Positions 14,222 through 61,928 of a DNA stretch of 64,000 nt are shown here, one piece after another. The notes under the pieces were generated by a model. It was not told where the DNA came from, searched no databases, and saw only the letters and a program-made list of their open reading frames with translations. Both the position numbers and the translations under genes were made by a program. Source of the stretch: an uncultured Actinomycetota bacterium (GTDB lineage Bacteria; Actinomycetota; UBA4738; HRBIN12); contig CAWBIH010000002.1 in NCBI GenBank assembly GCA_963788925.1, positions 503,752 through 567,751 on the forward strand. The letters are read 5' to 3'. Numbering within the stretch: position 1 is the stretch's first letter; the number at the start of each line of letters is the position of its first letter.

Positions 14222-14267
14222 GGGCCAGAGCGTACCTCGACCGAAGAGACAGAAAGGGAGTCCGCGG

Positions 14268-18371: not shown

Positions 18372-18383
18372 GACCGGGGAATC

Positions 18384-19593: not shown

Positions 19594-19682
19594 GGAGACG
19601 TGGCTGAGTGGCCGAAAGCAGCCGCCTGCTAAGCGGTTAGGGGGGTAAAACTCCCTCGGAGGTTCGAATCCTCCCGTCTCCG
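19594..19682 (+). tRNA. tRNA-Ser (anticodon GCU)
   Basis: 89-nt cloverleaf folded by hand. 7-bp acceptor stem GGAGACG/CGTCTCC, anticodon loop CUGCUAA, long variable arm, T-loop GGTTCGAATCC. TAGACT -10-like hexamer about 10 nt upstream. Confidence 0.85.
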
Positions 19683-19844
19683 CGGGCGCTTCTCCGGAGA
19701 TACTGTTGCGCGCTGTGGCATCAAAACTCGCGCACCTTCCGTGCTGGATAGAGAGGGTTTGGGTGTCAGCGGTGGATTGATAACGCAACCCAGCCCCTCG
19801 ATAATCGAAGTCGCGGGCCGTTCGGGCCCCGCCCGAGGGAGACC

Positions 19845-22009: not shown

Positions 22010-22083
22010 GCGCCCTTAGCTCAGTGGATCAGAGCGGCTGGCTACGGACCAGCAGGTCGGGGGTTCGAGTCCCTCAGGGCGCG
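22010..22083 (+). tRNA. tRNA-Arg (anticodon ACG)
   Basis: 74-nt cloverleaf. Acceptor GCGCCCT/AGGGCGC, D-stem GCTC/GAGC, anticodon stem GCTGG/CCAGC with loop CUACGGA, T-arm GGGGG-TTCGAGT-CCCTC. Confidence 0.8.
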
Positions 22084-22489
22084 CTTCCGAAGACAGGATC
22101 GTGAAGGATCGCTTCTAGTCGCGACTGAGTGCGTGTCGGTACGCAGGCGGCGCGTGGAGCCAGCAGACGGGAGAAGCGTTGTACGTGGAAAGGATCGTCT
22201 CGCATCCGATCTGTTCGCACATCCGTCCTCGAGCGGGACGGTCTGCCGCCTTCTTCCCGCGATCGGGCGGTCCGAACACTCGATCCTTGCGACTGACGCC
22301 CTCCACTCGGCCTCCCTGTTTCGTCGTGGATCATCGGATCCGAGGGGGCAGGGCGGGCGGGTGGTCTGCCGATGCCTCCGGTCGGTTGCCCGACGCGGCG
22401 GAGTTTCGATCGCTCGGGACCTCAACGATAGCACGGCGGCTCGACGGCCCGCTCGGTCGAGGAGCTGTGCACGCCCTGGAGAACCTCTG

Positions 22490-25729: not shown

Positions 25730-26461
25730 ATGCTTCGAGCGAGGGTCGATCGGCCCCGGTGCATCGGCGCAGGCAACTGCATCACGATCGCCCCGACGGC
25801 GTTCGACTGGCATCGCGGCGACTTCGGGAAGGCGGCCGTCGTCGACGCGGCGAGCGTCGACGAGGAGAAGCTCCGGGAAGCCGCGCTCGCCTGTCCGACG
25901 CAGGCGGTCATCCTCGAGGAGGTCGCGGAGCTGCTCCCGTGGCAGCTCCGCGGCCGCTCGCCCACACAGCGTGTCCAACGAACCTTCATGTTCACCGACA
26001 TCGCCGGGTCCACGAACCTCCTCGAGGCGATGGGAGACGAGGCGTGGAATTCGCTCCTGTCCTGGCACGACAAGACCTTGCGCTCGTTGTTCGGCGCGAA
26101 CCGAGGCGAGGAAGTGGTGGCGACGGGCGACGGATTCTTCGTCGCGTTCGAGTCGCCCGACGACGCCCTCGCGTGTGCGGCTGCGATCCAGCGGGATCTC
26201 GCCGCGCACCGCGCGGCCGCCGGGTTCGCGCCTCAGGTGCGGATCGGGGTGCACGCATCGGACGCGACGATGGTCGGCCGGAACTTCACGGGGAAGGGCG
26301 TGCATGAGGCCGCCCGGATCGGAGCCCTCGCCGAAGGCGGGCAGATCGTCGCGAGCGCCGGAACGGCCGCCGGTGGGCAGTTCCCGACGCGGGATGCGCG
26401 GACGGTGACGGTCAAGGGCATCTCCGATCCGATCGAGGTCGTCACCGTCGACTGGCAGTAG
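25730..26461 (+). CDS. fusion of a single-cluster [3Fe-4S]-type ferredoxin domain and a class III adenylyl/guanylyl cyclase catalytic domain
   Basis: N-terminal 60 aa has the Cys pattern C-x5-C...C-P (CIGAGNCITIAP...ACPTQAV) of small actinobacterial ferredoxins. Residues about 80-240 have class III cyclase motifs (FMFTDIAGST, VATGDGFFVAF, RIGVHASDA, GKGVHEAARI). ATG sits 14 nt after the LAL stop with an RBS GACGGAGGG. Confidence 0.75.
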   Translation: MLRARVDRPRCIGAGNCITIAPTAFDWHRGDFGKAAVVDAASVDEEKLREAALACPTQAVILEEVAELLPWQLRGRSPTQRVQRTFMFTDIAGSTNLLEAMGDEAWNSLLSWHDKTLRSLFGANRGEEVVATGDGFFVAFESPDDALACAAAIQRDLAAHRAAAGFAPQVRIGVHASDATMVGRNFTGKGVHEAARIGALAEGGQIVASAGTAAGGQFPTRDARTVTVKGISDPIEVVTVDWQ

Positions 26462-27814: not shown

Positions 27815-27823
27815 ACTCCCACC

Positions 27824-28795
27824 GTGGAGTACACGCACGTCGGCCGGCTCGGCCTGGTGGTCTCACGGCTCTGTCTCGGCACGATGAACTTCGGCCCCCA
27901 TACGCCCGAGGACGAATCACACCGCATCATGGATGCGGCGATCGCCGAGGGGATCAACTTCTTCGACACGGCCAACGTGTACGGCCGCCATCTCGGCGTG
28001 GGCTCGACCGAGCGGATCATCGGTGACTGGTTCGAGAAGGGCGGCGGACGGCGGGAGAAGGTCGTCCTCGCCACCAAGGTCTACGGGCAGATGGCGGAGT
28101 GGCCGAACGAGTCGCGCCTGTCGAAGCTCGCGATCCGCCGCGCGTGCGAGGGCTCGCTGAAGCGTCTGCAGACGGATTACATCGACGTCTATCAGATGCA
28201 CCACATCGACCGGAACGCGTGGTGGAACGAGATCTGGGAGGCGATGGACCAGCTGAAGAGCGAGGGCAAGATCCTCTACGTGGGATCGTCGAACTTCGCC
28301 GGCTGGCACATCGCGCGGGCGAACGAGATCGCCAGCAAGTGGCACACGGTGGGCCTCGCCACGGAGCAGTCCCTGTACAACCTGACCGAGCGCACGCTCG
28401 AGCTCGAGGTGATCCCTGCGGTCCAGGAGTACGGGATGGGCCTGATCGCCTGGAGCCCGCTCGCCGGCGGCTTGCTGGCGGGAGCGCTCAAGAAGGTCGA
28501 CGAGGGTCGTCGCTCCTCCGAATACCTGCAGGACGAGATCGACAAGGACCGCGACCGGCTGGAGCGCTACGAGAAGGTGTGCGCCGACCTGGGCGCGAGG
28601 CCGGCGGATGTCGCGCTCGCGTGGCTCCTGCACCAGCCGGCGGTGACGGCCCCGATCATCGGGCCCAGGACCGAGGAGCAGCTCGAGGGCTCGTTCCGGG
28701 CGCTCGAGGTCCGCCTGGACGAAGACGTCTTGCGCAAGCTGGACGAGATCTTCCCCGGCCCCGGTGGACCGGCGCCCGAAGCGTACGCCTGGTAG
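27824..28795 (+). CDS. aldo/keto reductase
   Basis: AKR motifs (LGTMNFG, FFDTANVYG, catalytic YIDVYQMH, IGPRTEEQL). GTG start. Confidence 0.85.
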   Translation: MEYTHVGRLGLVVSRLCLGTMNFGPHTPEDESHRIMDAAIAEGINFFDTANVYGRHLGVGSTERIIGDWFEKGGGRREKVVLATKVYGQMAEWPNESRLSKLAIRRACEGSLKRLQTDYIDVYQMHHIDRNAWWNEIWEAMDQLKSEGKILYVGSSNFAGWHIARANEIASKWHTVGLATEQSLYNLTERTLELEVIPAVQEYGMGLIAWSPLAGGLLAGALKKVDEGRRSSEYLQDEIDKDRDRLERYEKVCADLGARPADVALAWLLHQPAVTAPIIGPRTEEQLEGSFRALEVRLDEDVLRKLDEIFPGPGGPAPEAYAW

Positions 28796-31621: not shown

Positions 31622-32953
31622 CTAGTCGCTCGACCGGACCCGTCGCCGGATCGCCTCAGCGGTCTCGGCCGTGAGGGAGGCCAACGCCTCCGAGCGATGC
31701 GCGATGACGTGCTCGGGGTGTGTGAGCCGCGCGGCCTTCACGGGGAGTGCCGCGAGGTCTCGCTCGAAACGGGCGCGCATCTCCTCGATCGACGGCGCGG
31801 GTGCGAGGCGGCGCCCGGCCCGCATCACGGGCTCCAGCATCGGCTCGTGGTTCGGGCCGGGCGCCGCCTCGTCCCGGAGCGCGATGACATCCTCGGACGG
31901 ACCGCGCCAGACCTGCTTGCGACCGGGGGCGCTGGCCTTCGCCGGCGAGAGCTTCAGCACGGGTCGTCCGTCGAACTCCGCGAGCTTGTAGACGACGTCG
32001 ACGTACGGCGCATCGGCGGAGACGCCGAGCTGGGTCCCGATCCCGAACGCGTCGACCGGCGCACCCGCTCGAACCAGCTCCGCCACCTCGTGCTCGTCAA
32101 GCCCACCGCTCGCGAAGATCTTCGCCCGCCCGAGCCCCGCGTGGTCGAGGATCCGCCTGGCCTCGCGTGAGAGCCGGTCGAGGTCGCCCGAGTCGAGCCG
32201 GACGCCGACCTCCCCGGGAGGATCCACGTCCTCGATCACCTCGATCGCGTTCCGCACTCCGTTCAGGGTGTCGTAGGTGTCGACCAGGAAGGTCGTTCGG
32301 TGTGGATGGTCTTCCGCGAACGCCCGGAACGCCTCTCGCTCGTCGTCGAAGGCGGTGATGAAGGAGTGCGCCATCGTCCCGGTGACCCGGAGATCGAACT
32401 CGCTCGCGGCCTCGACGTTCGACGTCGCCTGGAAGCCGACGATCGCGCTCCCTCGGGCCGCGGCCCGCGCGGCCTCCACCCCGTGCGCCCGTCGGAACGC
32501 GAAGTCGACCAGGTCGCGTCCTTCCGCCGCGATCACGTAGCGGGCGGCCTTCGACGTGAGCGTCGTGTGGAGCGTCACCTGGTTCAACAGGACCGTTTCC
32601 ACCAATTGGGCCTCGGCGATCGGTGCCGTGACCTCCAAGATCGGCTCCTTCGCGTGGACGATGCGCCCCTCCGGCACCGCCCACACCTCGCCCCGGAAGC
32701 GCACGTCACGGAATCCATCGATCGCCCGCTGATCGAACCCGATCCGGCTGAGGTAGGCGAGGTTCTCTTCATCGAAGGAGAACGACTCGAGGAACCGCAG
32801 GCAATCGTCCAGACCCGTCGCGACGAGGAAGCCCCGTTGCTTCGGCATGTCCCGCACGTAGAGGCTGAAGGTCGCCGGACCGTTCATCCCACGGCGCAGA
32901 TAGCTCGCCGCCATGTTGAGTTCGTAGAGGTCGGTGCTCAGCCCGCCGGGCAT
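31622..32953 (-). CDS. pncB: nicotinate phosphoribosyltransferase
   Basis: NAPRTase family (LYELNMA..., GTMAHSFI, DTYDT). The ATG at 32953 is chosen; the ORF-track extension is rejected. Confidence 0.8.
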   Translation of the reverse strand: MPGGLSTDLYELNMAASYLRRGMNGPATFSLYVRDMPKQRGFLVATGLDDCLRFLESFSFDEENLAYLSRIGFDQRAIDGFRDVRFRGEVWAVPEGRIVHAKEPILEVTAPIAEAQLVETVLLNQVTLHTTLTSKAARYVIAAEGRDLVDFAFRRAHGVEAARAAARGSAIVGFQATSNVEAASEFDLRVTGTMAHSFITAFDDEREAFRAFAEDHPHRTTFLVDTYDTLNGVRNAIEVIEDVDPPGEVGVRLDSGDLDRLSREARRILDHAGLGRAKIFASGGLDEHEVAELVRAGAPVDAFGIGTQLGVSADAPYVDVVYKLAEFDGRPVLKLSPAKASAPGRKQVWRGPSEDVIALRDEAAPGPNHEPMLEPVMRAGRRLAPAPSIEEMRARFERDLAALPVKAARLTHPEHVIAHRSEALASLTAETAEAIRRRVRSSD

Positions 32954-32972
32954 GCGACGTAGGCTACAGGCG

Positions 32973-33323
32973 ATGTCGCGCCGCTCCCGACGCCTGTTCG
33001 AATCGCTCGTGGCCGACGCGCTGGACGAGCTCCCCGGATGGGTGCAGGAGGCGATGGACAACGTCGCGGTGGTGGTCGAGGATCGCCCGCCTGCCGATGA
33101 GCCCGATCTGCTCGGTCTCTACGAGGGGATCGCCCAGACCGAACGCGAGAACTATGCGGGGGTCCTGCCGGATCGGATCACGCTCTTCCGCGCCACGATC
33201 GAAAGCGAGGCGGGCGATGACGATGAGGAGCTTCGGGCGGTCGTCGCCGAGACCGTCGTGCACGAGGTCGCCCACCATTTCGGGATCTCGGATGAACGCC
33301 TCGAAGGACTGGGATGGGATTGA
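32973..33323 (+). CDS. zincin-like metallopeptidase family protein (DUF1025-like)
   Basis: Small protein with an HExxH-type motif (VVHEVAHHFG). Confidence 0.6.
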   Translation: MSRRSRRLFESLVADALDELPGWVQEAMDNVAVVVEDRPPADEPDLLGLYEGIAQTERENYAGVLPDRITLFRATIESEAGDDDEELRAVVAETVVHEVAHHFGISDERLEGLGWD

Positions 33324-34231: not shown

Positions 34232-34321
34232 GGAGGCGTGCCGGAGCGGACGAACGGGACCGCCTCGAAAGCGGTTAGGGGCCTAATCCGCCCCTCGCGT
34301 GTTCGAATCACGCCGCCTCCG
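34232..34321 (+). tRNA. tRNA-Ser (anticodon CGA), CCA encoded
   Basis: Acceptor GGAGGCG/CGCCTCC, anticodon loop CUCGAAA, long variable arm, T-loop TTCGAATC, 3' GCCA. TAGACT hexamer about 8 nt upstream. Confidence 0.85.
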
Positions 34322-34371
34322 CCATCGGGCGGGCCCTTCGATGGGCCCGCCCCAGTCGGTACCCTCCGTAG

Positions 34372-34948: not shown

Positions 34949-35036
34949 GGTGGCCTGCCCGAGCGGCCGAAGGGACACGCCTGGAAAGCGTGTAGGGGGG
35001 TTGACTCCCTCGAGGGTTCGAATCCCTCGGCCACCG
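34949..35036 (+). tRNA. tRNA-Ser (anticodon GGA)
   Basis: Acceptor GGTGGCC/GGCCACC, anticodon loop CUGGAAA, long variable arm, T-loop TTCGAATCC. TAGACT hexamer upstream. Confidence 0.85.
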
Positions 35037-35046
35037 CTCCCACCGC

Positions 35047-37840: not shown

Positions 37841-38106
37841 ACCGTGCTAGGCGGGGAGCTAGCGGTGCCCTGTACCCGCGATCCGCTTCAGCGGGGCTGA
37901 ATCCCCGCCCGAGGCCCGCGAGGTCCGAAGCGCCCCGGTACGAAGCGTCGAAGGTCGGGTCCCACGCGACGCCGGAACGCGAACCGGGTCAGGTCCGGAA
38001 GGAAGCAGCCCTAAGCGTGAACCGGCGGGTGCCGTGGGCCAGCCCGGCTGGAGCTCCGCTGCCGGGTAGCGGTCGAGTCTCGCGGCGTCGACGGCGGGTG
38101 CACGGT
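37841..38106 (+). ncRNA. ffs: signal recognition particle RNA, long (Bacillus-type) form with Alu domain
   Basis: Near-identity to the B. subtilis scRNA 5' Alu region (GUGCUA-GCGGGGAG-UAGCGGUGCCCUGUACC-GC-AUCCGCU). Universal domain-IV motif GUCAGGUCCGGAAGGAAGCAGCC at 37990-38012. The 3' end GGUGCACGGU is followed by a T5 run. TATACT -10 box about 10 nt upstream. Confidence 0.85.
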
Positions 38107-47479: not shown

Positions 47480-48737
47480 TCAGATGGACGGAACGGGCTG
47501 CGGATCGCGCTTCCGGCGCTTGTCCTCGTACATCCCTTCGTCGGCCGCATCGATCAACTCCTCGAGCGTCACGGAGCGCCCCGGGGGGATCGCGGAGAGG
47601 CCGATCGAGAGTGACATTTGGAAGTCTCGCCCGGGTCGCTCGATTGTGGGCCGCGGTCGTCTCGCGGAGCCGCTCGAGCGCGCGGTGGGGATGAAGCTCG
47701 GGGTCGCCCACGAGGAGTACACAGAACTCGTCGCCGCCGAGGCGCCCCGCCAGATCCGACGTGCGGATCGTCTCGCGGATCACGTCGGCCGCCTCTTTGA
47801 GCAACTGGTCGCCCATCGAATGGCCGAGCTCGTCGTTCACTTTCTTCAAGCCGTCTACGTCGACGAACAGCAGGGCGACGGCGGCCCGGGTCCGGGCCGA
47901 GACCAGGAGTTGATGCTCTCCGAGCGAGAAGAAGCCGCGCCGGTTGGCGAGACCGGTGAGCTCGTCCACCGTGGCGAGCTGACGGAGCTCCTCCTGGAGC
48001 TGGGAGAGGTGGGATCCGGTCCGGACCAGCGCCCGGGAGAGCAAGCCGAGCTCGTCGCGAGAGGAGTCCGGGTCGTCGAGCGGCATGCCTTCGTCGAGCC
48101 GCTTCGCGTTCCTCCGCATCTTGTCGACCCGTCTCACCATGCCCGCCGTGAAGCCGATCATGAGGATCATGGCGACGGCGACGGCCGCAGGCATCGCGAG
48201 CACCTGCACCAGGAAGGAACGCCTGAGGGCCACGTCGCGTGCCGCGACCCGCTCGGCAGCGAGCTCATCGACAGTCACCCGCATCTGCTCGGTCAGTCCA
48301 CGCAGCGCGTCGGTGATGGTCTGCCCGTGAAGCAGAGATGTCGCGAGCCGAGCCTGGTTGTCCAAGGATCCTCCGGTTCCGGCGCGAAGGCTCACTTCGA
48401 ACGTCGCCACGCGCTCGTCGACGAGCTCCTGGAGCCGCTCGAGCCGCTCGCCCTGGAGCCCTCCGCCCACAAGGAGATCGAGCTTCCCCAGGTCACGCTG
48501 AAAGTCGATCACCGCGCTCTCGTAGGCTGCCCGCATCCCCTCCCGCTCGGTCAGCAGGAATCCTCGGACGCCCGACTCGGCGACCCCCAGGTCATCTTGG
48601 ATCTCGGCGAGCAGCTGCCTCACCGTGTTCGTGTGGTCGACCTCGGTGTTGGTTCTTGTCGTCGCCCTCTGCGCGGACACCGCGTATCCGACGGCGAAAA
48701 CCAAGACGACCACTGGGATCGTCGACATCGCAAGCAT
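47480..48737 (-). CDS. diguanylate cyclase with N-terminal CHASE3-like sensor and HAMP (GGDEF), one frame change near 47650-47700
   Basis: TM helix plus CHASE3-like region (ESGVRGFLLTEREG). GGDEF core (VDELTGLANRRGF...FVDVDGLKKVND...RLGGDEFCVLL). The end of the GGDEF domain (SLSIGLSAI...ELIDAADEGMYEDKRRKRD) is in another frame. Confidence 0.65.
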
Positions 48738-48858
48738 CTTCGAGCGGAGCACCGTTGATTCTCCTGTAGGAAACCGACGTTCATGCTTTCGACGCCGGGA
48801 GAGGACCTCTTGAGCACGGGGGTTGTCTACCGACCGGTAGAGGCCGATAATCTGCCGG

Positions 48859-51168
48859 ATGGTAGAGAAGGGGACGGGGCGCCGGTCGAAGGCCGGTCGT
48901 TCGATCGTCGATCGGCTGGCCGGCAAGCGCATCTTCCTCACGGGCGTGACCGGCTTCCTCGGCCAGGTCGTCCTCGAGCGCCTCCTGGCCGATTTCCCCG
49001 AAACGAGGATCGTGTTGCTCGTCCGGTCCCAGACGGGCGCCTCCTCCGTGGAGCGGGTCCACTACCTGACGCGGAAGCCGTCCTTCGACGCGCTGCGTAC
49101 GACCCTCGGATCCGACGATGCGCTCCTGCGACTCCTGGACGAACGCGTCGAGGTCGTCGACGGCGACTTCTCTCGCGGGCAGCCGGAGCTCCCTGGCGAC
49201 ATCGACGTCACGATCCATTCGGCAGCCACCGTCGCCTTCGATCCGCCGATCGACGAAGGCTTCCAGACGAACCTGCTGGGCGCGATGAACCTGTACCGTG
49301 GCGTCCTCGGCGGCGGATCGCGACCCGCGCTCGTCCACGTCTCCACCGCGTACGTGGCCGGCGTGCAGAAGGGCGTGATCCCCGAGCGCACCCTGGATCA
49401 CCGCGTCGATTGGCGACTCGAGGCCGACCTCGCCCTCCAGTCGCGACGCGACGTCGAGGCGTCGTCCCGGAAGCCGGAGTTGCTCCAACGTTTCCTTTCG
49501 GACGCCGCCAAGGAGCACTCCCGTGCCGGTCCCACGACGGTCGCCGACGATGCCGAGCAGCGCCGCAAGGAGTGGATGACCAAGCGGCTCGTCGAGTACG
49601 GGAGACAACGCGCCCGCTCGCTCGGCTGGCCGGACGTCTACACGTTCACCAAAGCGATGGGTGAGCGCGCGGTGGAGGAACTCGCCGCCGAGGAGAGCCT
49701 GTCCTTGTCGATCGTCCGACCGTCCATCATCGAGTCCGCGTTGCTCCACCCCTCGCCGGGATGGATCGACGGATTCAAGATGGCCGACCCGATCATCCGG
49801 TCCTACGGCCTGGGGCAGATCCCCGAGTTCCCCGGCATCCCGGAAGGGATCGTGGACATCATCCCGGTGGACTTCGTCGTGAATGCGATCCTCGCCGTGG
49901 CGGCGACCCCGCCACCCCCCGGCCGGCCGGCTCACTACCACGTCTCTTCCGGCGACCGGAACCCCCTGCAGTTCCACCAGCTGTACACGCTCGTCCGGGA
50001 GTATTTCGAGGCCCACCCGCTCCCGGAGCGAGGTCGAGGCGAGCACAAGGTTCCCGAATGGACCTTCCCCGGAAACGTCACCGTCGAGAAGATGCTTCGC
50101 CGAGCCGAGCAGCTCACCGACATCGCGGAGACCGTCGTCACGCACCTGCCCAAGTCCAAGGCCATGCGCGACGCCGTGGGCAGGGTGGACCGCGACAAGG
50201 CGCGGGTCGACTTCGTGAAGCGCTACTCCGATCTCTACGGTGCCTACACGGAGGCCGAGGTGATCTACACCGACGACGTGGCGATGGCCCTCTACGGGAG
50301 CCTGAGCGCGGAGGACCGTGCCCGGTTCCCCTTCGACGCCGCCGCGATCGACTGGAAGTACTACCTCCAGGACGTCCACTCCCCGGCGGTGACGCAGTCG
50401 CTCCGCGAGCTCGCTCGGAAGGATCGAGCCCGTCCCACGGTCAAGATCCGGGAGCGCGAGGAGCCGGTGCTGGCCGTGTTCGACATGGAGGGCACGATCA
50501 TCTCCTCGAACGTCGTCGAGTCCTACGTCTGGGCGAGGATGGCCGACCTCGAGCCCGACGAGTGGCCTGGTGAGCTGGTCGGCGTCTTCGGCCGGATCCC
50601 GCGGTACCTGGCGATCGACCGACGGGATCGAGGCGACTTCCTGCGAACGTTCTTCCGCCGGTACGAGGGCGCCTCCGTGGAGGGCCTCGACCGACTGATC
50701 GATCGGCACGTGGGGGAGTTCATGCTCGAGAAGGCGAGTCCAGGGGCGATCCGCCGGATCCGGGAGCACCGAGCGGCCGGACACCGGACGCTGTTGCTCA
50801 CCGCCGCCGCGAACGCGTTCCTCCGGCCCCTCGATCCGCTGTTCGACGTGGTGATCGGCGCCGACCTCCAGGTGGACGACGAAGGCCGGTATACGGGCTT
50901 CATGTCCAGCCCGCCGCTCGTCGGCGAGGCGCGAGCGGCGTGGCTTCGCCGCTACGCATCGACGGAAGGTGTCGACCTGAAGCTGTCCTATGCCTACGCG
51001 GATTCCTACTCCGACCTGCCGTTGCTCCGTGCGGTCGGGAATCCCGTGGCGGTGTCGCCGGATTCCCACCTGTACCGCTTCGCGCGCCGGCGGCGCTGGC
51101 CGATCGAGGAGTGGGGGATGTCGAAGGGCATGCCGCGCGTCCGATTCCCGAAGCCGGCGAGGAGGTAG
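48859..51168 (+). CDS. bifunctional fatty acyl-CoA reductase (NAD_binding_4 / male-sterility domain) fused to a C-terminal HAD-IB phosphatase domain
   Basis: N-terminal Rossmann motif IFLTGVTGFLGQVVLERLL and FAR-type catalytic region (STAYVAG...YTFTKAMGE). Residues about 490-760 form a HAD-IB domain (VFDMEGTII motif I, LLTAAANAF, distal YADSYSDLPLL). 769 aa. Confidence 0.8.
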   Translation: MVEKGTGRRSKAGRSIVDRLAGKRIFLTGVTGFLGQVVLERLLADFPETRIVLLVRSQTGASSVERVHYLTRKPSFDALRTTLGSDDALLRLLDERVEVVDGDFSRGQPELPGDIDVTIHSAATVAFDPPIDEGFQTNLLGAMNLYRGVLGGGSRPALVHVSTAYVAGVQKGVIPERTLDHRVDWRLEADLALQSRRDVEASSRKPELLQRFLSDAAKEHSRAGPTTVADDAEQRRKEWMTKRLVEYGRQRARSLGWPDVYTFTKAMGERAVEELAAEESLSLSIVRPSIIESALLHPSPGWIDGFKMADPIIRSYGLGQIPEFPGIPEGIVDIIPVDFVVNAILAVAATPPPPGRPAHYHVSSGDRNPLQFHQLYTLVREYFEAHPLPERGRGEHKVPEWTFPGNVTVEKMLRRAEQLTDIAETVVTHLPKSKAMRDAVGRVDRDKARVDFVKRYSDLYGAYTEAEVIYTDDVAMALYGSLSAEDRARFPFDAAAIDWKYYLQDVHSPAVTQSLRELARKDRARPTVKIREREEPVLAVFDMEGTIISSNVVESYVWARMADLEPDEWPGELVGVFGRIPRYLAIDRRDRGDFLRTFFRRYEGASVEGLDRLIDRHVGEFMLEKASPGAIRRIREHRAAGHRTLLLTAAANAFLRPLDPLFDVVIGADLQVDDEGRYTGFMSSPPLVGEARAAWLRRYASTEGVDLKLSYAYADSYSDLPLLRAVGNPVAVSPDSHLYRFARRRRWPIEEWGMSKGMPRVRFPKPARR

Positions 51169-51175
51169 GGAGCCG

Positions 51176-52384
51176 ATGGCGCTGGCGCTCGAGTTCTATC
51201 GTTCCGCGCCGAAGTACCTCGGGGCGCGGACGCTCGGCTCGAAGGCACCCGGGCTACTGACCGGTGGGCTCGCTCCGCTCAGGCTCGTGACCCAGAAGGA
51301 CCCGGAACCGAAGCGCGAGGGGTGGGCGCGCGTCAAGCCCCGGCTCTCCGGGATCTGTGGGAGCGACCTCTCCACGATCTCGGGGAGGTCGTCGTTCTAC
51401 TTCTCGCCGCTCGTCTCACTGCCGTTCGTGCCCGGCCACGAGGTCGTCGGCGAGCTCCTCGATGACGTCGGCGACCTCGTGGCCGGGCAACGGGTCGTGA
51501 TCTCGAGCGTCCTCGGTTGCGCGGCACGGGGCGAGGAGCCTCCGTGTGAGCATTGCGCTTCGGGTCAGGTCGGCCGTTGCGACCGGGTGACGGTGGGACA
51601 TCTGAAGCCCGGGCTCCAGACCGGCTATTGCACCGAGACCGGGGGCGGATGGAGCCGACTGATGCTCGCCCATCGGTCACAGCTGTGGCCGGTCCCCGAC
51701 GGGATGAGCGATCAGACCGCGGTCCTCATCGAGCCGTTCGCCTGCGCGATCCACGCGGCCTTCCGCGCCGAGATCCCTGCGGGGGGAACCGTGCACATCG
51801 TCGGCGCCGGCACGGTCGGCATCCTCACGTTGATCGCGATCAAGGCTCTCACGAAAGCCGATCACGTCGTCGTGGCAGCGAAGCACCAGCGTCAGCGCGC
51901 CGCCGCGACGATGGCCGGCGCCGACGACGTCGTGCGTCCGGAGCATGCCGTGAAGGCGGTTCGCCGGACCGATCACGCGGTGAAGCTCACCCCGGAGCGC
52001 GGGATGGACTTCCTCCTCGGGGGAGTCGACGTGGCGATCGAGTGCACGGGGTCGAGCAGCGCGCTCGACCTTGCGCTGAGGACGACGAAGGCAGGGGGCC
52101 GTGTCGTCGTCTCGGGCATCCCGGGCGGTGGCGCCGATCTCACCCCGTTGTGGTTCCGCGAGCTCGAGCTCGCGGGTGCCTACACGTCGGGCGTCGAGGA
52201 CCTCGGGAAGGGCGTCACGCGCCCGACGTTCGAGATCGCGATGGATCTCGCTTCGAACCTGCCCATGCTCGAGCAACTCGTGGGCGCGACCTACCCCCTC
52301 GACCGCTGGCGCGAGGCACTCGATCACGCGATGGCAGCCGGCACGCTCGGTACCTTCAAAGTGGCGTTCGCGCCGCAGGCCTAG
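51176..52384 (+). CDS. zinc-dependent alcohol dehydrogenase (MDR superfamily)
   Basis: Catalytic zinc ligands in GICGSDL...GHEVVGEL, a structural-zinc Cys cluster (CAARGEEPPCEHC...C), and NAD motif VHIVGAGTVGIL. ATG sits 7 nt after the preceding stop. Confidence 0.85.
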   Translation: MALALEFYRSAPKYLGARTLGSKAPGLLTGGLAPLRLVTQKDPEPKREGWARVKPRLSGICGSDLSTISGRSSFYFSPLVSLPFVPGHEVVGELLDDVGDLVAGQRVVISSVLGCAARGEEPPCEHCASGQVGRCDRVTVGHLKPGLQTGYCTETGGGWSRLMLAHRSQLWPVPDGMSDQTAVLIEPFACAIHAAFRAEIPAGGTVHIVGAGTVGILTLIAIKALTKADHVVVAAKHQRQRAAATMAGADDVVRPEHAVKAVRRTDHAVKLTPERGMDFLLGGVDVAIECTGSSSALDLALRTTKAGGRVVVSGIPGGGADLTPLWFRELELAGAYTSGVEDLGKGVTRPTFEIAMDLASNLPMLEQLVGATYPLDRWREALDHAMAAGTLGTFKVAFAPQA

Positions 52385-52416
52385 GAAACACGAACGAGGA
52401 CAGGAGAGACGAACAC

Positions 52417-54006
52417 ATGCCCAGACCCGGATTCGTGTTGGAGGTGGATGAACGGACGCCCCCGCTCCTGATCCATGAGGGCGAGGGCTTCCGCATGCAG
52501 AAGTTCCCGCTCGGCACCCGGGTCGTGTACCCACCGGATGCCCTCCCTGGGATCCGAGACGTCAACGCGGCGATCCGCCACGCCCTGCTCAACCCCACGG
52601 GAGACTCGCAGCCGCTTCCGGACCTGCTCAAGGCCGGGATGAAGCTGACGATCGCGGTGGACGACATCTCGATCCCCTTGCCGCCGATGACGCGCCCCGA
52701 TATCCGTCAGCGGATCCTCGAGCAGGTGATCGAGCTGGCGGCGCGCAGCGGGGTCGAGGACGTGCAGATCGTGGTCGCGACCGCCCTTCACCGGCGGATG
52801 ACCGCCGACGAGATCCGCCGGATGGTCGGGGAGCGGGTCTTCCGTTCGTTCTGGCCCAAGGACCTCTACAACTTCGACGGCGAGGACAAGGACGCGCTGA
52901 CGCTCATCGGGACCACCGACGAGCACGAGGACGTCGAGATCTCCAAGCGCGCCGCGGAGTCGGACCTTCTCGTCTACATCAACGTCAACCTGGTCGCGAT
53001 GGACGGGGGGCACAAGTCGGTCGCGATCGGCCTCGCCGGATACCGCTCGCTCCGACATCACCACAACGTCGAGACGATGATGCACTCGCGGTCCTACATG
53101 GACCCGAGGCCCGGGCATAGTGCGATCGCCGACTCCGCCACCCGGATGGGCCGGTTGATCGCCGCCAACGGACTCAAGATCTTCCAGATCGAGACCACCT
53201 TGAACGCGGAGACGTTCCCGAAGAACCTCGGCTTCCTGAACAAGCGAGAGTGGGAGTGGTCCGCGTACGACCAGGGGCTCATGATGGCGGCCCGGAAGGC
53301 GAATCAGATGGCGCCACCGCGGATGCGCCGAGAGTTCTACAAGCGGGTCGAGGCTCCCTACAAGCTCACGGGGGTCAGCGCGGGCGAGGTGGAGGCCGTC
53401 CACGACCGGACCCTCGAGAACCTGCACCGGCAACAGCTGGTCGAGGTCCGGGGACAGTCCGACGTGCTCGTGCTCGGACTTCCCTACATCAGCCCCTACA
53501 ACGTCAACTCGATCATGAACCCGATCCTGGTCCACTGCCTCGGGCTCGGCTACCTCTTCAACATGTACCGGAACATGCCGCTGGTGAAGCCGGGCGGCGT
53601 CGTGATCATGTACCACCCGGTTCCGTGGGAGTTCCATCAGATCCATCACCCCTCGTACATCGACTTCTTCGAAGAGGTGCTGGCGGAGACCACCGACCCG
53701 TCCACGATCGAATCGAAGTACGAAGAGCGATATGCGACCGACCCCTGGTACACGCACCTGTACCGGACGTCGCACGCGTACCACGGCGTGCATCCCTTCT
53801 ACATGTGGTACTGGGGAGCGCACGGGCGCGACCACGCCGGCGACGTGATCTTCGTCGGCGGAGAGCCGAAGTCCGTCGCGCGCCTCGGGTATCGCGCCGC
53901 CGGATCGTTCCGCGACGCATTGGAGATGGCGAAGGACACCGTCGGGTCCTCCCCGACGATCACGTACTTCCACGCCCCGCCGATCATGATCGCCGACGTG
54001 GTGTGA
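52417..54006 (+). CDS. LarA-like (DUF2088) nickel-pincer-type hydroxy-acid racemase/epimerase family protein
   Basis: 529 aa. DUF2088 N-domain (KLTIAVDDISIP...) and a GGHKS block matching the LarA Gly-Gly-x-Lys-Ser cofactor-lysine loop. His-rich region RSLRHHHN. RBS GAGGACAGGAGAG. Confidence 0.7.
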   Translation: MPRPGFVLEVDERTPPLLIHEGEGFRMQKFPLGTRVVYPPDALPGIRDVNAAIRHALLNPTGDSQPLPDLLKAGMKLTIAVDDISIPLPPMTRPDIRQRILEQVIELAARSGVEDVQIVVATALHRRMTADEIRRMVGERVFRSFWPKDLYNFDGEDKDALTLIGTTDEHEDVEISKRAAESDLLVYINVNLVAMDGGHKSVAIGLAGYRSLRHHHNVETMMHSRSYMDPRPGHSAIADSATRMGRLIAANGLKIFQIETTLNAETFPKNLGFLNKREWEWSAYDQGLMMAARKANQMAPPRMRREFYKRVEAPYKLTGVSAGEVEAVHDRTLENLHRQQLVEVRGQSDVLVLGLPYISPYNVNSIMNPILVHCLGLGYLFNMYRNMPLVKPGGVVIMYHPVPWEFHQIHHPSYIDFFEEVLAETTDPSTIESKYEERYATDPWYTHLYRTSHAYHGVHPFYMWYWGAHGRDHAGDVIFVGGEPKSVARLGYRAAGSFRDALEMAKDTVGSSPTITYFHAPPIMIADVV

Positions 54007-54016
54007 GGAGAGCGGG

Positions 54017-54925
54017 ATGAGCATGAAGAGCGAACTGAAGGCGATGGCGGAAGGGTTCCGATGGGGCCGGCGTCCGCTGGTCCCTCGCTCGGCGGAAGAA
54101 CACACCGAGCCGAAGGTCGACCGCGTCTTCCCCTCCGATTGGGCCCGCACCGACGCGGGAGTCGCAGCCCGGCAGGTCCTGTTGAAAGGGGCGATGCACC
54201 CCATCGTTCGGAACGAGCTCACCCTCCGCGTGTTCGGGCGAGACAACCTCGAAGGCGTCGACCCACCGCTGATCTTCTATTCGAACCACTCGAGCCATCT
54301 CGACGCGACCCTGATCATGTGCACCCTGCCCGATGCGTGGCAGGCCAAGACGGGAGTGGGGGCGGCGCGCGACTACTTCTTCGACGTCTGGTGGCGCCAG
54401 GCGTTCACCGCGCTCGTCTACGGTGCGTTCCCTATCGACCGAACCCGCGGCGCGAAGGGGGCCGTCGACAAGGCTCGCGAGCTCCTCTCCGAGGGGTGGA
54501 GCATCGTCGTCTTCCCCGAGGGGACGCGCTCGGCCGACGGCCATCTGCAGCGGTTCCGGCACGGCGCCGCCCGGCTCGCGCTGGAGACGGGGGCCGGCCT
54601 CGCGCCCATCGCGATCGTCGGTGCGTTCCAGGCGATGCCGAAGGGCCGGTTCTGGCCACGTTCCGGGCGACCTCCCGTCACGGTCCGCTACGGAGAGCCC
54701 TTCTGGCCGCACGAGGGAGAGACCCATCAGGACCTGTCTCGGCGCATGACGCAGGCGGTGACCCAGCTCTTCCACGAGGAACGAACGACCTGGTGGGAAG
54801 CGCTCCATCGAGCCAACCAAGGCGAAACCCCGTCGCTCGTCGGCCCACAGGGGCCCGACTGGCTCCGGCGGTGGGAGGGTTCGCGGCCCCTCGGTCGCAA
54901 GGGTCCCGCGAAGGTCTGGGAGTAA
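54017..54925 (+). CDS. lysophospholipid acyltransferase (PlsC / LPLAT family)
   Basis: Acyltransferase motif I NHSSHLD (HX4D), motif III FPEGTRS, and motif IV region. Confidence 0.85.
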   Translation: MSMKSELKAMAEGFRWGRRPLVPRSAEEHTEPKVDRVFPSDWARTDAGVAARQVLLKGAMHPIVRNELTLRVFGRDNLEGVDPPLIFYSNHSSHLDATLIMCTLPDAWQAKTGVGAARDYFFDVWWRQAFTALVYGAFPIDRTRGAKGAVDKARELLSEGWSIVVFPEGTRSADGHLQRFRHGAARLALETGAGLAPIAIVGAFQAMPKGRFWPRSGRPPVTVRYGEPFWPHEGETHQDLSRRMTQAVTQLFHEERTTWWEALHRANQGETPSLVGPQGPDWLRRWEGSRPLGRKGPAKVWE

Positions 54926-54930
54926 GCCGG

Positions 54931-55545
54931 GTGCCGAGGACCGGCGGCGAGGAACGGCGTTCGACCCTCATCGAGGAGGCCATCCGGCAGTTCGGTCGCG
55001 AGGGCTTCGGGGGCGCGAGTCTCGACGATATCGCCGGTGCCGTCGGCGTCCGGAAGCAGACGCTCCTGTACTACTTCCAGAACAAGGACGCGTTGCTCGA
55101 GGCGTGTCTCCAGGCGGCGGGGATCAGGCTGGCGGAAGTGATCGGGCAGGCGCTCGAAGGCAAGGAGGGGTACTGGGAACGTGCCGAAGCCGTCATCCAC
55201 TCGGTGTTCGACCTCGCCGCGGAGTGGCCGGAATTCCCCATGTTCATCAGGGAAGCGGGTCGACTGGGTCCGCTCGCGTTCGAGCGGTTCGCCGACGTGC
55301 TCGACCCGCTCAGACGTCGCGCGGTCGACTTCCTGCGGTCCGGGATGGACGACGGTCAGGTCCGGAAGCAAGACCCCACGATGCTCCTGTTCACGCTGTA
55401 CACGGCGGTCGTCGGATCCCTCACTGAGGCGAGCGTCCTCAACGCCGTCGTGGGCGCCGACAAGAGCCGGGCGTCACTCCGGCGACGCGAGAAGGAGGTG
55501 GTCGCGTTCGTTCGCGCGGCTCTGGAGCCGGTGGGGGATCGCTAG
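54931..55545 (+). CDS. TetR-family transcriptional regulator
   Basis: N-terminal HTH (IEEAIRQFGREGFGGASLDDIAGAVGVRKQTLLYYFQNKDALL). GTG sits 5 nt after the plsC-like stop. Confidence 0.85.
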   Translation: MPRTGGEERRSTLIEEAIRQFGREGFGGASLDDIAGAVGVRKQTLLYYFQNKDALLEACLQAAGIRLAEVIGQALEGKEGYWERAEAVIHSVFDLAAEWPEFPMFIREAGRLGPLAFERFADVLDPLRRRAVDFLRSGMDDGQVRKQDPTMLLFTLYTAVVGSLTEASVLNAVVGADKSRASLRRREKEVVAFVRAALEPVGDR

Positions 55546-55580
55546 TTCGGGACGATCAACGCCGGGTAGGGAAACGTCGC

Positions 55581-56270
55581 TCACGCCAGTGCCCAGAAAG
55601 GTCCCGTGAGCCCGATCCCGTCGAAGATCGCCTGTGCCTCCTCCGGCGTCTTCCGTCGCCAGTCCGGTGAGAGACGATCCCCGAACCATCGCGTCGCGAG
55701 CTGCCATCCCTGCTGGGGCGTGAGGGTCGAGCCGATCTCGGTCCGCCGTTCCTCGGTCCACCTCGTCACGTGCTCTTCCGACCGGAAGAGGAGCATGCTC
55801 GCTCAGGTGGAACCGATGTCGTCCCACCAGCGCGCGGCCGGCACGGCGAAATGGATGACGCCGCCTGCGGACGGTTCGAGCGCCCCGTCTCGGATGTCGA
55901 GCGAGAGCGGCTCGGAGCAGTCGGGGCAGTAGGTTCGGATGCGCGCGTCGGCGTGCAAGCACGCGGGGATCCCGAGTGCGTCCCAGACGCAATTGCCGAA
56001 GTAGCGACGGTCGGCGACCTCGACCTCGAAGGGTGTCGGGATCGCCGAGAACGGGTTCGCCATCCAGATGTAGGGCGTCCCCGGGGCGAGGACGAGGACG
56101 TGGCCCTCCGAGAGCCGTCGAAGGGAGGCCTCGACATCCCGGGCGGCGATCCCGAGCTCGACCGCCATCTCGGGCGCCGTGGGAGGTCGTCCGTCCTCCA
56201 CGATCCTCCGGTACACGGTAAGGCGGACGTCCCGGTCGAGGGTCGAGGCGTCGCCGGAAGAGGCGACCAT
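55581..56270 (-). CDS. organomercurial (alkylmercury) lyase MerB-family protein with an in-frame TGA at the position of catalytic Cys159 (candidate selenocysteine codon, or a nonsense lesion)
   Basis: Aligns along its length with MerB (FEVEVADRRYFGNCVWDALGIPA matches [21 protein letters not shown] with Cys96/Asp99). C-terminus ...DDIGST-TGA-ASMLLFRSEEH matches ...RQSFC(159)CHVHFFAS. Codon 55805-55803 is TGA. A hairpin CTCTTCC-GGTC-GGAAGAG begins 11 nt downstream. Confidence 0.6.
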
Positions 56271-58057: not shown

Positions 58058-58234
58058 CCTCCTCGGTCGTAGTGTCTTTCGGACTCCCGACGGTCACCAG
58101 GGGTTCCCGGCAACCTTCCCGAGTTCTTCATCCGTCGTTCATCGATGCCTTGGAGCAGTTGGCGTGTGACTGGCGTAACGCGAGGGAGGGAACGCGATAC
58201 GGTCGGGGAACCGAGCGAGCCGGGAGGTCGCAGC

Positions 58235-59461
58235 ATGGCGGAGACTCTGGTCTACGGCGCGAGCTGGTGCCCCGATTGCCGACGCGCGAAGAAGTTCCTG
58301 GCGGATCAGCGCGTGGGCTACGAGTGGCACGACATCGAGAGCGAGCCGGAGGGCGCGAAGGTGGTTCGGGATCGGAACGACGGGAAGAACATCATCCCCA
58401 CGGTCATCTTCCCCGATGGCACGCATCTCTCCGAGCCCTCGAACGAGGAGCTGGCGGAGAAGCTCGGCCTCCAACGACAGGCGATGCAGCACGTCTACGA
58501 CCTGATCATCGTGGGTGGCGGGCCGACCGGTCTGACGACCGCGATCTATGCGGCGCGCGAGAACCTCGAGACGCTGATCATCGATTCGAAGGGCCTTGGC
58601 GGTCAGGCGGGGGTGACGGAGCGACTCGACAACTACCCCGGGTTCCCCGAGGGGATCGCCGGAGCCGAGCTCGCCGACCGCTTCGTCAAGCAGGCCGAGC
58701 GGTACGGGGTCGAGATGCTGCAGGCCGTATCCGTCACGAGCATCTCGGCGGACTCGGGCATGACCGCCGACGGCGACGAGCTCGATATCGCGACCGCGAC
58801 CGGTGACCATTACCACGCACGAGCGGCGCTGGTCGCGACCGGATCTTCTTACCGGCGAACGAACGCCGAGGGTGAGGACGACCTGATCGGCGCGGGGGTC
58901 CATTTCTGCGCGACCTGCGACGGCCCCTTCTACAAGGGCTCGGACGAGCTGATGGTGATCGGCGGCGGCAACTCCGGCCTCGAGGAGGGCGTCTTCCTGA
59001 CCCAGTTCACGGACAAGGTCACGATCGTTGAGCGAGGCGACCGGCTGCGCGGGTCGAGGATCCTCCAGGACAAGGTCCTCGACCACCCGAGGATGGAGGT
59101 GGAACTGCGACACGGCGTGAAGGAGTTCCGCAAGAAAGAGGACGGTTCCGGCAAGCTCGGGGCCGTCGTGATCGAGGATCTCGAGTCGGGGGAGATCGAG
59201 GAGCACCACCCCGCCGGCGTGTTCGTCTTCATCGGCCTCGATCCGAACACCGACTTCCTGAAGGGGATCGTCGAGCTGGATGAGCGGGGGTTCGTTGCCG
59301 CCGACCCCACCTTCATGAGCTCGATGCCGGGGGTCTTCGCCGCCGGCGACGTGCGGGGTGGGTCGACGAAACAGCTCGCGTCGGCGGTGGGCGAGGGCGC
59401 GGCGGCGGCGATCCAGATCCGCGGCTATCTCGACCGGCTCGAGCAGCGCCGGACGGCGTAG
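58235..59461 (+). CDS. glutaredoxin-like (CPDC thioredoxin-fold) domain fused to thioredoxin-disulfide reductase
   Basis: N-terminal about 80 aa LVYGASWCPDCRRAKKFL (Grx/NrdH-like CxxC). The remainder is TrxR (IIVGGGPTGLTTA FAD motif, redox CATCDG, NADPH motif VIGGGNSGLEEG). RBS GGGAGG. Start at 58235, not the ORF-track 58145. Confidence 0.85.
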   Translation: MAETLVYGASWCPDCRRAKKFLADQRVGYEWHDIESEPEGAKVVRDRNDGKNIIPTVIFPDGTHLSEPSNEELAEKLGLQRQAMQHVYDLIIVGGGPTGLTTAIYAARENLETLIIDSKGLGGQAGVTERLDNYPGFPEGIAGAELADRFVKQAERYGVEMLQAVSVTSISADSGMTADGDELDIATATGDHYHARAALVATGSSYRRTNAEGEDDLIGAGVHFCATCDGPFYKGSDELMVIGGGNSGLEEGVFLTQFTDKVTIVERGDRLRGSRILQDKVLDHPRMEVELRHGVKEFRKKEDGSGKLGAVVIEDLESGEIEEHHPAGVFVFIGLDPNTDFLKGIVELDERGFVAADPTFMSSMPGVFAAGDVRGGSTKQLASAVGEGAAAAIQIRGYLDRLEQRRTA

Positions 59462-61846: not shown

Positions 61847-61854
61847 TATCGGTG

Positions 61855-61928
61855 TCGGGACGGCGGGACTTGAACCCGCGACCTCAGCGTCCCGAACGCT
61901 GCGCGCTACCAAACTGCGCCACGTCCCG
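61855..61928 (-). tRNA. tRNA-Pro (anticodon CGG)
   Basis: Reverse complement folds as acceptor CGGGACG/CGTCCCG, D-stem GCGC/GCGC, anticodon stem CAGCG/CGCTG with loop UUCGGGA, T-arm GCGGG-TTCAAGT-CCCGC. Coordinates plus or minus 1. Confidence 0.8.

Follow-up and report, generated by a model that had tools for sequence, protein, structure and literature searches.

The cassette described here lies in a 64-kb stretch of DNA from an uncultured Actinomycetota bacterium (GenBank assembly GCA_963788925.1, contig CAWBIH010000002.1, positions 503,752 to 567,751), which we refer to as the window and whose numbering is used for all coordinates unless another locus is named. The G+C content of the window is about 68%, and high GC at third codon positions picks out five consecutive genes on the plus strand. 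These encode a fusion of a fatty acyl-CoA reductase (FAR) with a HAD-IB domain (G1, 48859-51168, 769 amino acids), a zinc-dependent alcohol dehydrogenase (Zn-ADH; G2, 51176-52384, 402 amino acids), a LarA-family protein (G3, 52417-54006, 529 amino acids), a PlsC acyltransferase (G4, 54017-54925, 302 amino acids), and a TetR regulator that begins with a GTG codon (G5, 54931-55545, 204 amino acids). The spacers between these genes are, in order, 7, 32, 10, and 5 nucleotides long, and Shine-Dalgarno-like motifs of the GGAG type precede G2, G3, G4, and G5. Tight packing of five genes on one strand had been claimed in an original prediction made from the letters of the window, and the coordinates confirm it. 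Searches with Pfam and NCBIfam profiles returned exactly the domains that had been named for G1 to G5. The Gly-Gly-x-Lys-Ser loop reported for the LarA-family protein is found as GGHKS at residues 197-201 of G3, and the HX4D motif described as intact in the PlsC protein reads HSSHLD in G4.

In G1, an NAD_binding_4 domain (Pfam, E = 2.7e-50) spans residues 27-344 (48937-49890) and is followed by a Sterile/FAR_C domain (PF03015) at residues 450-506 (50206-50376) and by a HAD domain (PF12710, E = 1.4e-29) at residues 539-724 (50473-51030), all on the plus strand. The reductase part has the marks of a FAR, which are a Rossmann motif of the form GxxGxxG (GVTGFLG), a YxxxK motif (YTFTK), and the Sterile C-terminal domain, and the solved fatty acyl-CoA reductase 7eoz in the PDB matches residues 13-513 (E = 1.4e-50). 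The HAD part carries the motifs FDMEGT and DSYSD and scores 97.0 bits against TIGR01490, for which the cut-off is 98.3. The second of these motifs, which corresponds to HAD motif IV (DSxSD), is conserved among relatives.

G2 contains ADH_N and ADH_zinc_N domains (Pfam and NCBIfam) and the motifs GICGSD and GHE, which supply zinc ligands. Among proteins of known structure it comes nearest to L-idonate 5-dehydrogenase, to butanediol, sorbitol, and xylitol dehydrogenases, and to a ketose reductase, and it is predicted to be an MDR zinc dehydrogenase of the polyol or secondary-alcohol type. G4 belongs to PF01553 and has both motifs expected of a PlsC/AGPAT enzyme, HSSHLD at residues 91-96 and FPEGT at residues 166-170; the PlsC structure of T. 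maritima (PDB 5kym) matches it with E = 4e-14. G5 has a TetR_N domain (E = 7e-13).

G3 contains a Lar_N domain (PF09861, E = 3e-39) and scores 880.7 bits against the NCBIfam model for the LarAH14/15/16 family (NF052592), well above the cut-off of 740. Two proteins that are discussed below, the LarA-like protein of Rubrobacter and ElbC of Myxococcus xanthus, also pass with 857.6 and 848.8 bits. An AlphaFold2 model of G3 (pLDDT 91.3, pTM 0.91) matches LarA structures with a probability of 1.0. In our own alignment of 81 sequences, from which all residue conservation in G3 is taken, D82, H125, N189, G197, G198, K200, S201, H215, and H216 do not vary, and D83 is replaced by Asn in only one of them. 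The invariant C-terminal residues include E259, E278, H329, Q339, N368, N382, H400, H411, Y445, Y449, R450, H456, H459, and W466. Equivalents of the LarA residues Lys184, which tethers the cofactor (K200), His200, which binds nickel (H216, sixteen residues beyond the lysine), Asp72 (D82), and the first catalytic histidine, His108 (H125), are all retained. The second catalytic histidine, His174, is missing in the G3 family, and the corresponding region holds the invariant N189 and, frequently, N191. The Lys298 equivalent is Asn. Judged from its residues and its modeled fold, G3 is probably a nickel-pincer enzyme with the LarA fold and a single catalytic histidine.

This subfamily coincides with group 14 of the LarA homologues tabulated by Desguin et al. 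in 2020 (PMC7583248), which contains proteins from Frankia (Franean1_4168, "LarAH14"), Kribbella (Kfla_3040), Acidimicrobium (Afer_1430), Ilumatobacter (YM304_22240), and Rubrobacter (Rxyl_2107). The group has the same residue pattern as G3, with Asp72, His108, Lys184, and His200 kept, Arg75 changed to Leu or Ile, a gap at His174, and Lys298 changed to Asn (their Table S3). It also has the same tabulated neighbors, namely COG0204 (PlsC), COG0560 (HAD), and COG1063 (Zn-ADH) at 88% each and the COG3320 reductase at 50% (their Table S1). Desguin et al. give the function of group 14 as unknown and make no link to ElbC or ether lipids, and they report that the purified Frankia LarAH14 was inactive in seven racemase and epimerase assays. 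Because the second catalytic histidine and the carboxylate-binding arginine and lysine are missing, it is unlikely that G3 acts as a 2-hydroxy-acid epimerase. The name LarAH15 appears in a 2024 JBC paper for a Phytophthora gluconate epimerase that is apparently unrelated to the group 15 of 2020, and this protein was not used to assign function.

The best PDB matches of the G3 model are 9q3k and 9q3j (TM-scores of 0.78/0.85 to 9q3k). Together with 9q2u, these entries represent LarA_Sp and LarA_Bw of group 17, which have one catalytic histidine and carry Asn (Asn185 in LarA_Sp) in place of His174; LarA_Sp binds the nickel-pincer cofactor covalently. A HMMER alignment pairs the catalytic histidine (H115), cofactor lysine (K195), and nickel ligand (H211) of LarA_Sp with H125, K200, and H216 of G3, and it also pairs the near-ligand residues Y307 and H401 with the invariant residues Y361 and H459. 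The asparagines do not superimpose exactly in the sequence alignment, which is the only basis for this comparison: N189 and N191 lie 11 and 9 residues before the cofactor lysine, one residue off the LarA_Sp asparagine, which precedes it by 10. The sequence identity of G3 to LarA_Sp and LarA_Bw is only about 18-21%, and the gene context of these enzymes is glycolysis and sugar metabolism, unlike that of G3. They also have Lys at the Arg75 position, where G3 has Ile.

Two further genes in the window may have a bearing on nickel-pincer chemistry. A nicotinate phosphoribosyltransferase gene on the minus strand (31622-33118) feeds the nicotinic-acid nucleotide pool, which is the source of the cofactor, and is probably plain housekeeping. 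An aldo/keto reductase gene lies at 27815-28795; aldo/keto reductase homologues that use the nickel-pincer cofactor, with a His/Lys motif, are the subject of a 2026 paper.

The cassette is a real and widely conserved actinobacterial operon. Relatives were sampled by scanning one genome per GTDB species with the G3 alignment, and at least 592 species genomes encode one. We retrieved 80 loci (L001-L080), 57 of which have sequence on both sides, and compared them with the five window proteins by tblastn. In all 57 of these, genes for FAR-HAD, ADH, LarA-like, and PlsC proteins follow each other in this order on one strand, with a split ADH match in one case. Because every locus with room to show it keeps both order and strand, the grouping goes far beyond chance, and chance adjacency can be ruled out. 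The LarA-like gene is the best conserved of the four biosynthetic genes, with a median identity to the window protein of 66%, compared with 55% for the HAD part, 54% for ADH, 52% for the FAR part, and about 43-44% for PlsC. A TetR gene lies downstream of PlsC in 30 loci, which are confined to the closer relatives, and upstream on the opposite strand in 6 further loci from Acidimicrobiales or unnamed metagenome-assembled genomes. When all flanking open reading frames of the 80 loci were clustered, no further neighbor conserved across lineages was found beyond the four genes and TetR; the remaining clusters are antisense shadow frames or local synteny.

Homologues of G3 number in the thousands, although a look-up of the identical sequence gave no record. 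The best 120 are 72-96% identical to it, and the named ones among them come from uncultured Actinomycetota. Its closest relatives, with 92-96% identity, are encoded in metagenome-assembled genomes of uncultured soil Actinomycetota. Among the 80 retrieved loci are some from Frankia, Actinomadura, Micromonospora, Actinoplanes, Phytohabitans, certain Streptomyces, Jiangellaceae, and Acidimicrobiales.

A genetically studied relative of the cassette exists in M. xanthus. G3 is 48% identical over 523 amino acids (E = 1e-177) to MXAN_1529, which belongs to the myxobacterial LarAH group 15 with the neighbors COG0451, COG0560, and COG1022 (PMC7583248). The M. xanthus locus is the ether-lipid operon elbABCDE (PMC9131029; MIBiG BGC0000871), and since its locus tags run from MXAN_1531 (elbA) to MXAN_1527 (elbE) (PMC13012113), MXAN_1529 is elbC. 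The operon encodes, in order, an epimerase-family SDR, a HAD-IB protein of 221 amino acids, the Lar_N protein of 536 amino acids, a multidomain protein of 1470 amino acids, and a second epimerase-family SDR. The large protein, ElbD, combines NAD_binding_4/Sterile, AMP-binding, PP-binding, and Acyltransferase domains. The reductase part of G1 shares 28.5% identity with the N-terminus of ElbD (E = 2e-46), and the HAD part shares 32% with ElbB (E = 2e-26); between G4 and the C-terminal acyltransferase domain of ElbD the identity is 37% (E = 3e-25). G2 has no BLAST match to ElbE, ElbA, or any other Elb protein.

Both systems thus have a LarA-family protein adjoining a HAD-IB gene or domain, FAR and AGPAT-type acyltransferase domains, and a dedicated NAD(P) dehydrogenase, all encoded on one strand. 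They differ in how the domains are joined. The FAR is fused to the HAD domain in the cassette, whereas in ElbD it is fused to acyl-CoA synthetase (ACS), acyl carrier protein (ACP), and acyltransferase domains; the acyltransferase is consequently a domain of ElbD in M. xanthus and the separate protein G4 here. A TetR regulator is attached to the cassette, unlike the elb operon. Each arrangement was found a second time among the loci, the elb type in L084 and the actinobacterial type in L083. On these homologies the cassette is best filed as an actinobacterial, domain-shuffled variant of the elb type. As a system it is of a known kind, since the gene association is already contained in the supplement of the 2020 study (PMC7583248) and had probably been noticed in Rubrobacter by 2023. 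What is new here is the explicit equation of ElbC with a single-histidine LarA homologue, which is drawn from sequence comparison. In the literature that could be searched, we found neither a link between ElbC and LarA nor one between lactate racemase and ether lipids, and there were no papers on the group-14 locus tags or on DUF2088 in combination with an acyltransferase and lipid.

The comparison can be extended to routes that use alkyl-dihydroxyacetone phosphate synthase (AGPS). The other ether-lipid operon of M. xanthus encodes AGPS, a FAR-acyltransferase fusion, and an SDR (PMC9131029). Because the rest of the two M. xanthus routes matches, subtraction places the pair of HAD and LarA-like proteins where AGPS would stand. 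The cassette likewise shares its logic with the eukaryotic and myxobacterial AGPS route (FAR, GNPAT, AGPS, and a reductase for acyl- or alkyl-dihydroxyacetone phosphate [DHAP]), in that both combine a reductase for the fatty chain with an acyltransferase for glycerolipids and a reductase for keto groups. However, the AGPS of this route is FAD-dependent, and the cassette has no AGPS but contains the HAD and LarA-like pair instead. In published work on the elb operon, ElbD is necessary for the ether lipids and ElbC is shown without an assigned function (PMC9131029, PMC13012113).

A second connection to ether lipids comes from Rubrobacter. Rxyl_2107 of Rubrobacter xylanophilus is a member of LarAH group 14 (PMC7583248), and the membranes of Rubrobacterales are dominated by mixed ether/ester lipids, as a 2023 paper by Sinninghe Damste and coworkers (Syst Appl Microbiol 46:126404) states in its title. 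In R. radiotolerans (CP007514; L082:5841-11581), genes for PlsY, a FAR-HAD fusion (752 amino acids), a Zn-ADH (401 amino acids), and a LarA-like protein (526 amino acids) lie in a row. The last three have the same order as in the cassette, but the acyltransferase gene lies upstream and encodes PlsY, where the cassette has its PlsC gene downstream, and a TetR gene is absent. This replacement suggests that the acyltransferase is an exchangeable part of the cassette. A 2023 study of Rubrobacter reportedly also describes a putative operon for 1-O-alkyl-glycerol phosphate that resembles those of other aerobic ether-lipid producers.

We consider it fairly likely that the cassette is a TetR-controlled operon for the synthesis of 1-O-alkyl-glycerol (ether) lipids, similar to elbB-E. 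If this is correct, then homology suggests that the FAR domain of G1 would make a fatty aldehyde or alcohol by reducing a long-chain acyl thioester. G3 may transiently oxidize the C2 hydroxyl of a substrate of the glycerol-phosphate type, such as glycerol-3-phosphate or its 1-acyl derivative. By means of this activation of C2, or of the hydride that it has borrowed, it would link the fatty chain to C1 of glycerol through an ether bond and so stand in for AGPS. The hydride could be returned to C2, which would amount to an AGPS-like exchange with retention, or it could be passed to the aldehyde-derived carbon, which would yield alkyl-DHAP. G2 could reduce an alkyl-DHAP-like 2-keto intermediate to 1-O-alkyl-glycerol-3-phosphate, a task that has been assigned to the unrelated SDR ElbE and that PexRAP would likewise perform. 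G4 is expected from its homology to acylate the sn-2 position, and the HAD-IB domain of G1, whose fold is assigned by homology, might remove the phosphate. G5 would repress the operon by binding to a palindrome that overlaps its promoter.

The reading as an ether-lipid operon is supported by the homology of G3, G1, and G4 to Elb proteins, the lipids of Rubrobacter, the conserved synteny, the high conservation of the LarA-like gene, the subtraction of the two M. xanthus routes, the invariance of the cofactor residues, the similarity of the G3 fold to single-histidine LarA enzymes that hold the cofactor, and the polyol-type dehydrogenase. As for the chemistry of G3, a single-histidine nickel-pincer enzyme is suited to transient oxidation: it would take the hydride of a secondary alcohol from one face and give it back there or pass it to a neighboring carbon, as the LarA field has itself suggested. 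A nickel-pincer enzyme of another fold was recently shown to shuttle hydride between molecules, so the hydride transfer proposed for G3 is not far-fetched. The most specific form of this idea, in which LarA proteins of the ElbC/G3 type would be the AGPS-independent and oxygen-independent ether-bond-forming enzymes of aerobic bacteria and would work by nickel-pincer borrowing of the C2 hydride, is possible but must be regarded as tentative.

Several observations weigh against these proposals. HAD motif I in the lineage of the window (50479-50496) is DMEGT and not DxDGT. Close relatives share this sequence, which puts Glu in place of the general acid/base Asp; Acidimicrobiales have DLENT, and the canonical DxDGT is found in Frankia, Actinomadura, Rubrobacter, and ElbB. 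The equivalent of Arg75, which binds the cofactor phosphate, is Ile86 in G3 and Leu, Ile, or Val in its relatives, and larB, larC, and larE were not found among the roughly 45 window genes that were scanned, which is weak evidence given that only 64 kb is visible. With this hydrophobic residue, and with these genes missing from the scanned set, G3 is best called a putative nickel-pincer enzyme. The cassette has no counterpart of the ACS and ACP domains of ElbD, as no AMP-binding or PP-binding domain occurs in G1 to G5, and the SDR ElbE (and ElbA) is replaced by the non-homologous, zinc-dependent MDR dehydrogenase G2. The precedent in M. xanthus calls for caution as well: the elbB phenotype was ascribed to polar effects, any role of ElbC is putative, and purified ElbD had neither FAR nor acyltransferase activity (PMC9131029). 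Pontiella has an elbD homologue, yet no ether lipids were detected in it. To our knowledge, ether lipids are also unreported for most cultured carriers of the cassette, such as Frankia, Micromonospora, Actinomadura, and Kribbella.

A further difficulty arises from group 16 of the LarA homologues (FRAAL3757 and Francci3_2278 of Frankia, including Frankia alni, and MLP_28440 of Microlunatus), in which the cofactor lysine has changed to Gly or Ala and His108 is sometimes lost, while the PlsC and HAD neighbors are kept (PMC7583248). These proteins closely resemble G3 at the N-terminus and could be degenerate or non-nickel paralogues in the same kind of cluster. The loss of the lysine with retention of the neighbors leaves room for a non-catalytic or otherwise different role of G3-type proteins. 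G3 might belong to an ether-lipid cassette without forming the ether, either as an accessory isomerase of glycerol phosphate and DHAP or as a non-catalytic or non-nickel scaffold, with the bond being made by another component. The lack of larBCE in the scanned part of the window would fit this arrangement as well. However, G3 is the product of the best-conserved gene in the cassette, its cofactor residues and putative catalytic residues are invariant in all 81 sequences, and no other gene of the cassette encodes a plausible ether-forming enzyme. We regard a role of this kind, accessory or scaffold, as possible but not likely.

The products need not be ethers at all. The closest solved relatives of G3 are encoded amid genes of glycolysis and sugar metabolism, and one of these structures has been modeled with a phosphorylated aldose-like ligand. 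G2 resembles sugar and polyol dehydrogenases, and HAD-IB enzymes are typically small phospho-ester phosphatases. It is therefore conceivable that a phosphorylated sugar or polyol head group is remodeled by G3 together with G2 and loses its phosphate to the HAD domain, while FAR and PlsC supply and attach lipid tails, so that a fatty-alcohol lipid or an acylated polyol- or sugar-phosphate lipid would be made. We judge this scheme unlikely, because G3 is 48% identical to ElbC and only 18-21% identical to the sugar-context enzymes, no glycosyltransferase or sugar-handling gene is conserved beside the cassette in the 80 loci, and the link to Rubrobacter points to alkyl glycerol lipids. Much the least probable scheme is the one that the original prediction put forward, in which G3 as a 2-hydroxy-acid racemase or epimerase would set the stereochemistry of a 2-hydroxy fatty acyl group and the product would be an alkane-1,2-diol or fatty alcohol that is acylated to diol or wax lipids. 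G3 does have the LarA fold with its cofactor lysine and histidine, and a FAR and an acyltransferase are at hand. Nevertheless, the equivalents of His174, Arg75, and Lys298 that serve two-base racemization and carboxylate binding are missing in group 14, LarAH14 was inactive on all seven 2-hydroxy-acid reactions, the cassette includes no 2-hydroxylase, and the homologous elb system yields glycerol ethers instead of diols.

The original prediction has accordingly held up in part. Its gene content, its operon structure, and its lipid theme are upheld, and two of the checks that it named, on synteny and on alignment of the cofactor lysine, came out in its favor, with the four biosynthetic genes together in 57 of 57 testable loci and K200 present in every aligned sequence. 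Its mention of ether- or alkyl-type lipids among the possible products is now the best-supported reading, given the homology to the elb operon and the lipids of Rubrobacter. Its epimerase role for G3 is not supported by the residues and assays of group 14, and the route from a 2-hydroxyacyl group to a diol has no specific support. The statement that no characterized pathway is known to combine these activities is likewise not upheld, since elbABCDE is homologous and genetically studied and the association of group 14 with PlsC, HAD, ADH, and reductase genes was tabulated in 2020 (PMC7583248).

The cassette offers a testable hypothesis for the ether-bond-forming step of the elb route in aerobic bacteria. 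It ties this step to the substrate question that single-histidine LarA homologues pose in the nickel-pincer field, in a compact four-gene system that is available for testing. If the proposal that G3 forms the ether is true, then nickel-pincer chemistry would extend beyond racemization into C-O bond formation, and hundreds of soil Actinomycetota species would be producers of non-isoprenoid alkyl glycerol ether lipids. That many soil Actinomycetota may make ether lipids is relevant to where bacterial ether-lipid biomarkers come from and to the "lipid divide" that separates the membranes of bacteria and archaea.

Control of the cassette by G5 is suggested by elements at its 5' end. The sole promoter-like match in 48500-55900 is a sigma-70-like site on the plus strand at 48823-48851, with TTGTCT and GATAAT separated by a spacer of 17 nucleotides. 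Because the -10 box GATAAT ends 7 nucleotides ahead of the ATG of G1, the G1 transcript is possibly leaderless. A 16-bp palindrome, TCTACCGACCGGTAGA, overlaps this promoter at 48826-48841 with arms of 7 nucleotides around a center of 2; it was spotted by eye and confirmed by a pattern search, which gives three matches in the window with at most two mismatches where 0.17 are expected. Each of 12 related loci contains the core of the palindrome, CTACCGNNCGGTAG, a single time, in every case shortly upstream of the FAR-HAD gene. The palindrome may well be the operator to which G5 binds. G5 has a helix-turn-helix domain and the predicted operator is conserved at the promoter, so the two together have the makeup of a TetR regulator with its operator as far as this can be read from the DNA. 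A degenerate second palindrome with two mismatches, TCTGCCGGATGGTAGA, covers the G1 start codon (48851-48866). A related perfect palindrome, TCTTCCGACCGGAAGA, lies at 55774-55789, beyond the end of the TetR gene and short of the 3' end of the MerB-like gene that converges on it, and may serve as an operator-like site or form a hairpin.

The genes on either side are unrelated to the cassette, which is therefore bounded as originally described. The upstream flank contains genes for aspartokinase, asd, and a divergent GGDEF protein, and the downstream flank contains the convergent MerB-like gene and rpsD.

Some other features of the window deserve mention. Genes for heme biosynthesis are scattered over its first third (2-3132, 13241-14293, and 17100-18383) and encode uroporphyrinogen decarboxylase, ferrochelatase, an amine-oxidase-type (HemY-like) protein, aminolevulinic acid dehydratase, and glutamyl-tRNA reductase. 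A small and unusual fusion at 25730-26461 joins a 4Fe-4S ferredoxin domain to an adenylate/guanylate cyclase catalytic domain, and another fusion at 58145-59461 joins a glutaredoxin domain to a pyridine-nucleotide-disulfide oxidoreductase of the thioredoxin-reductase type. A large bacterial signal recognition particle RNA is encoded at 37842-38105, just upstream of dnaX and recR. The window also contains five tRNA genes, three for Ser, one for Arg, and one for Pro (19594-19683, 22010-22084, 34232-34324, 34949-35037, and 61854-61928).

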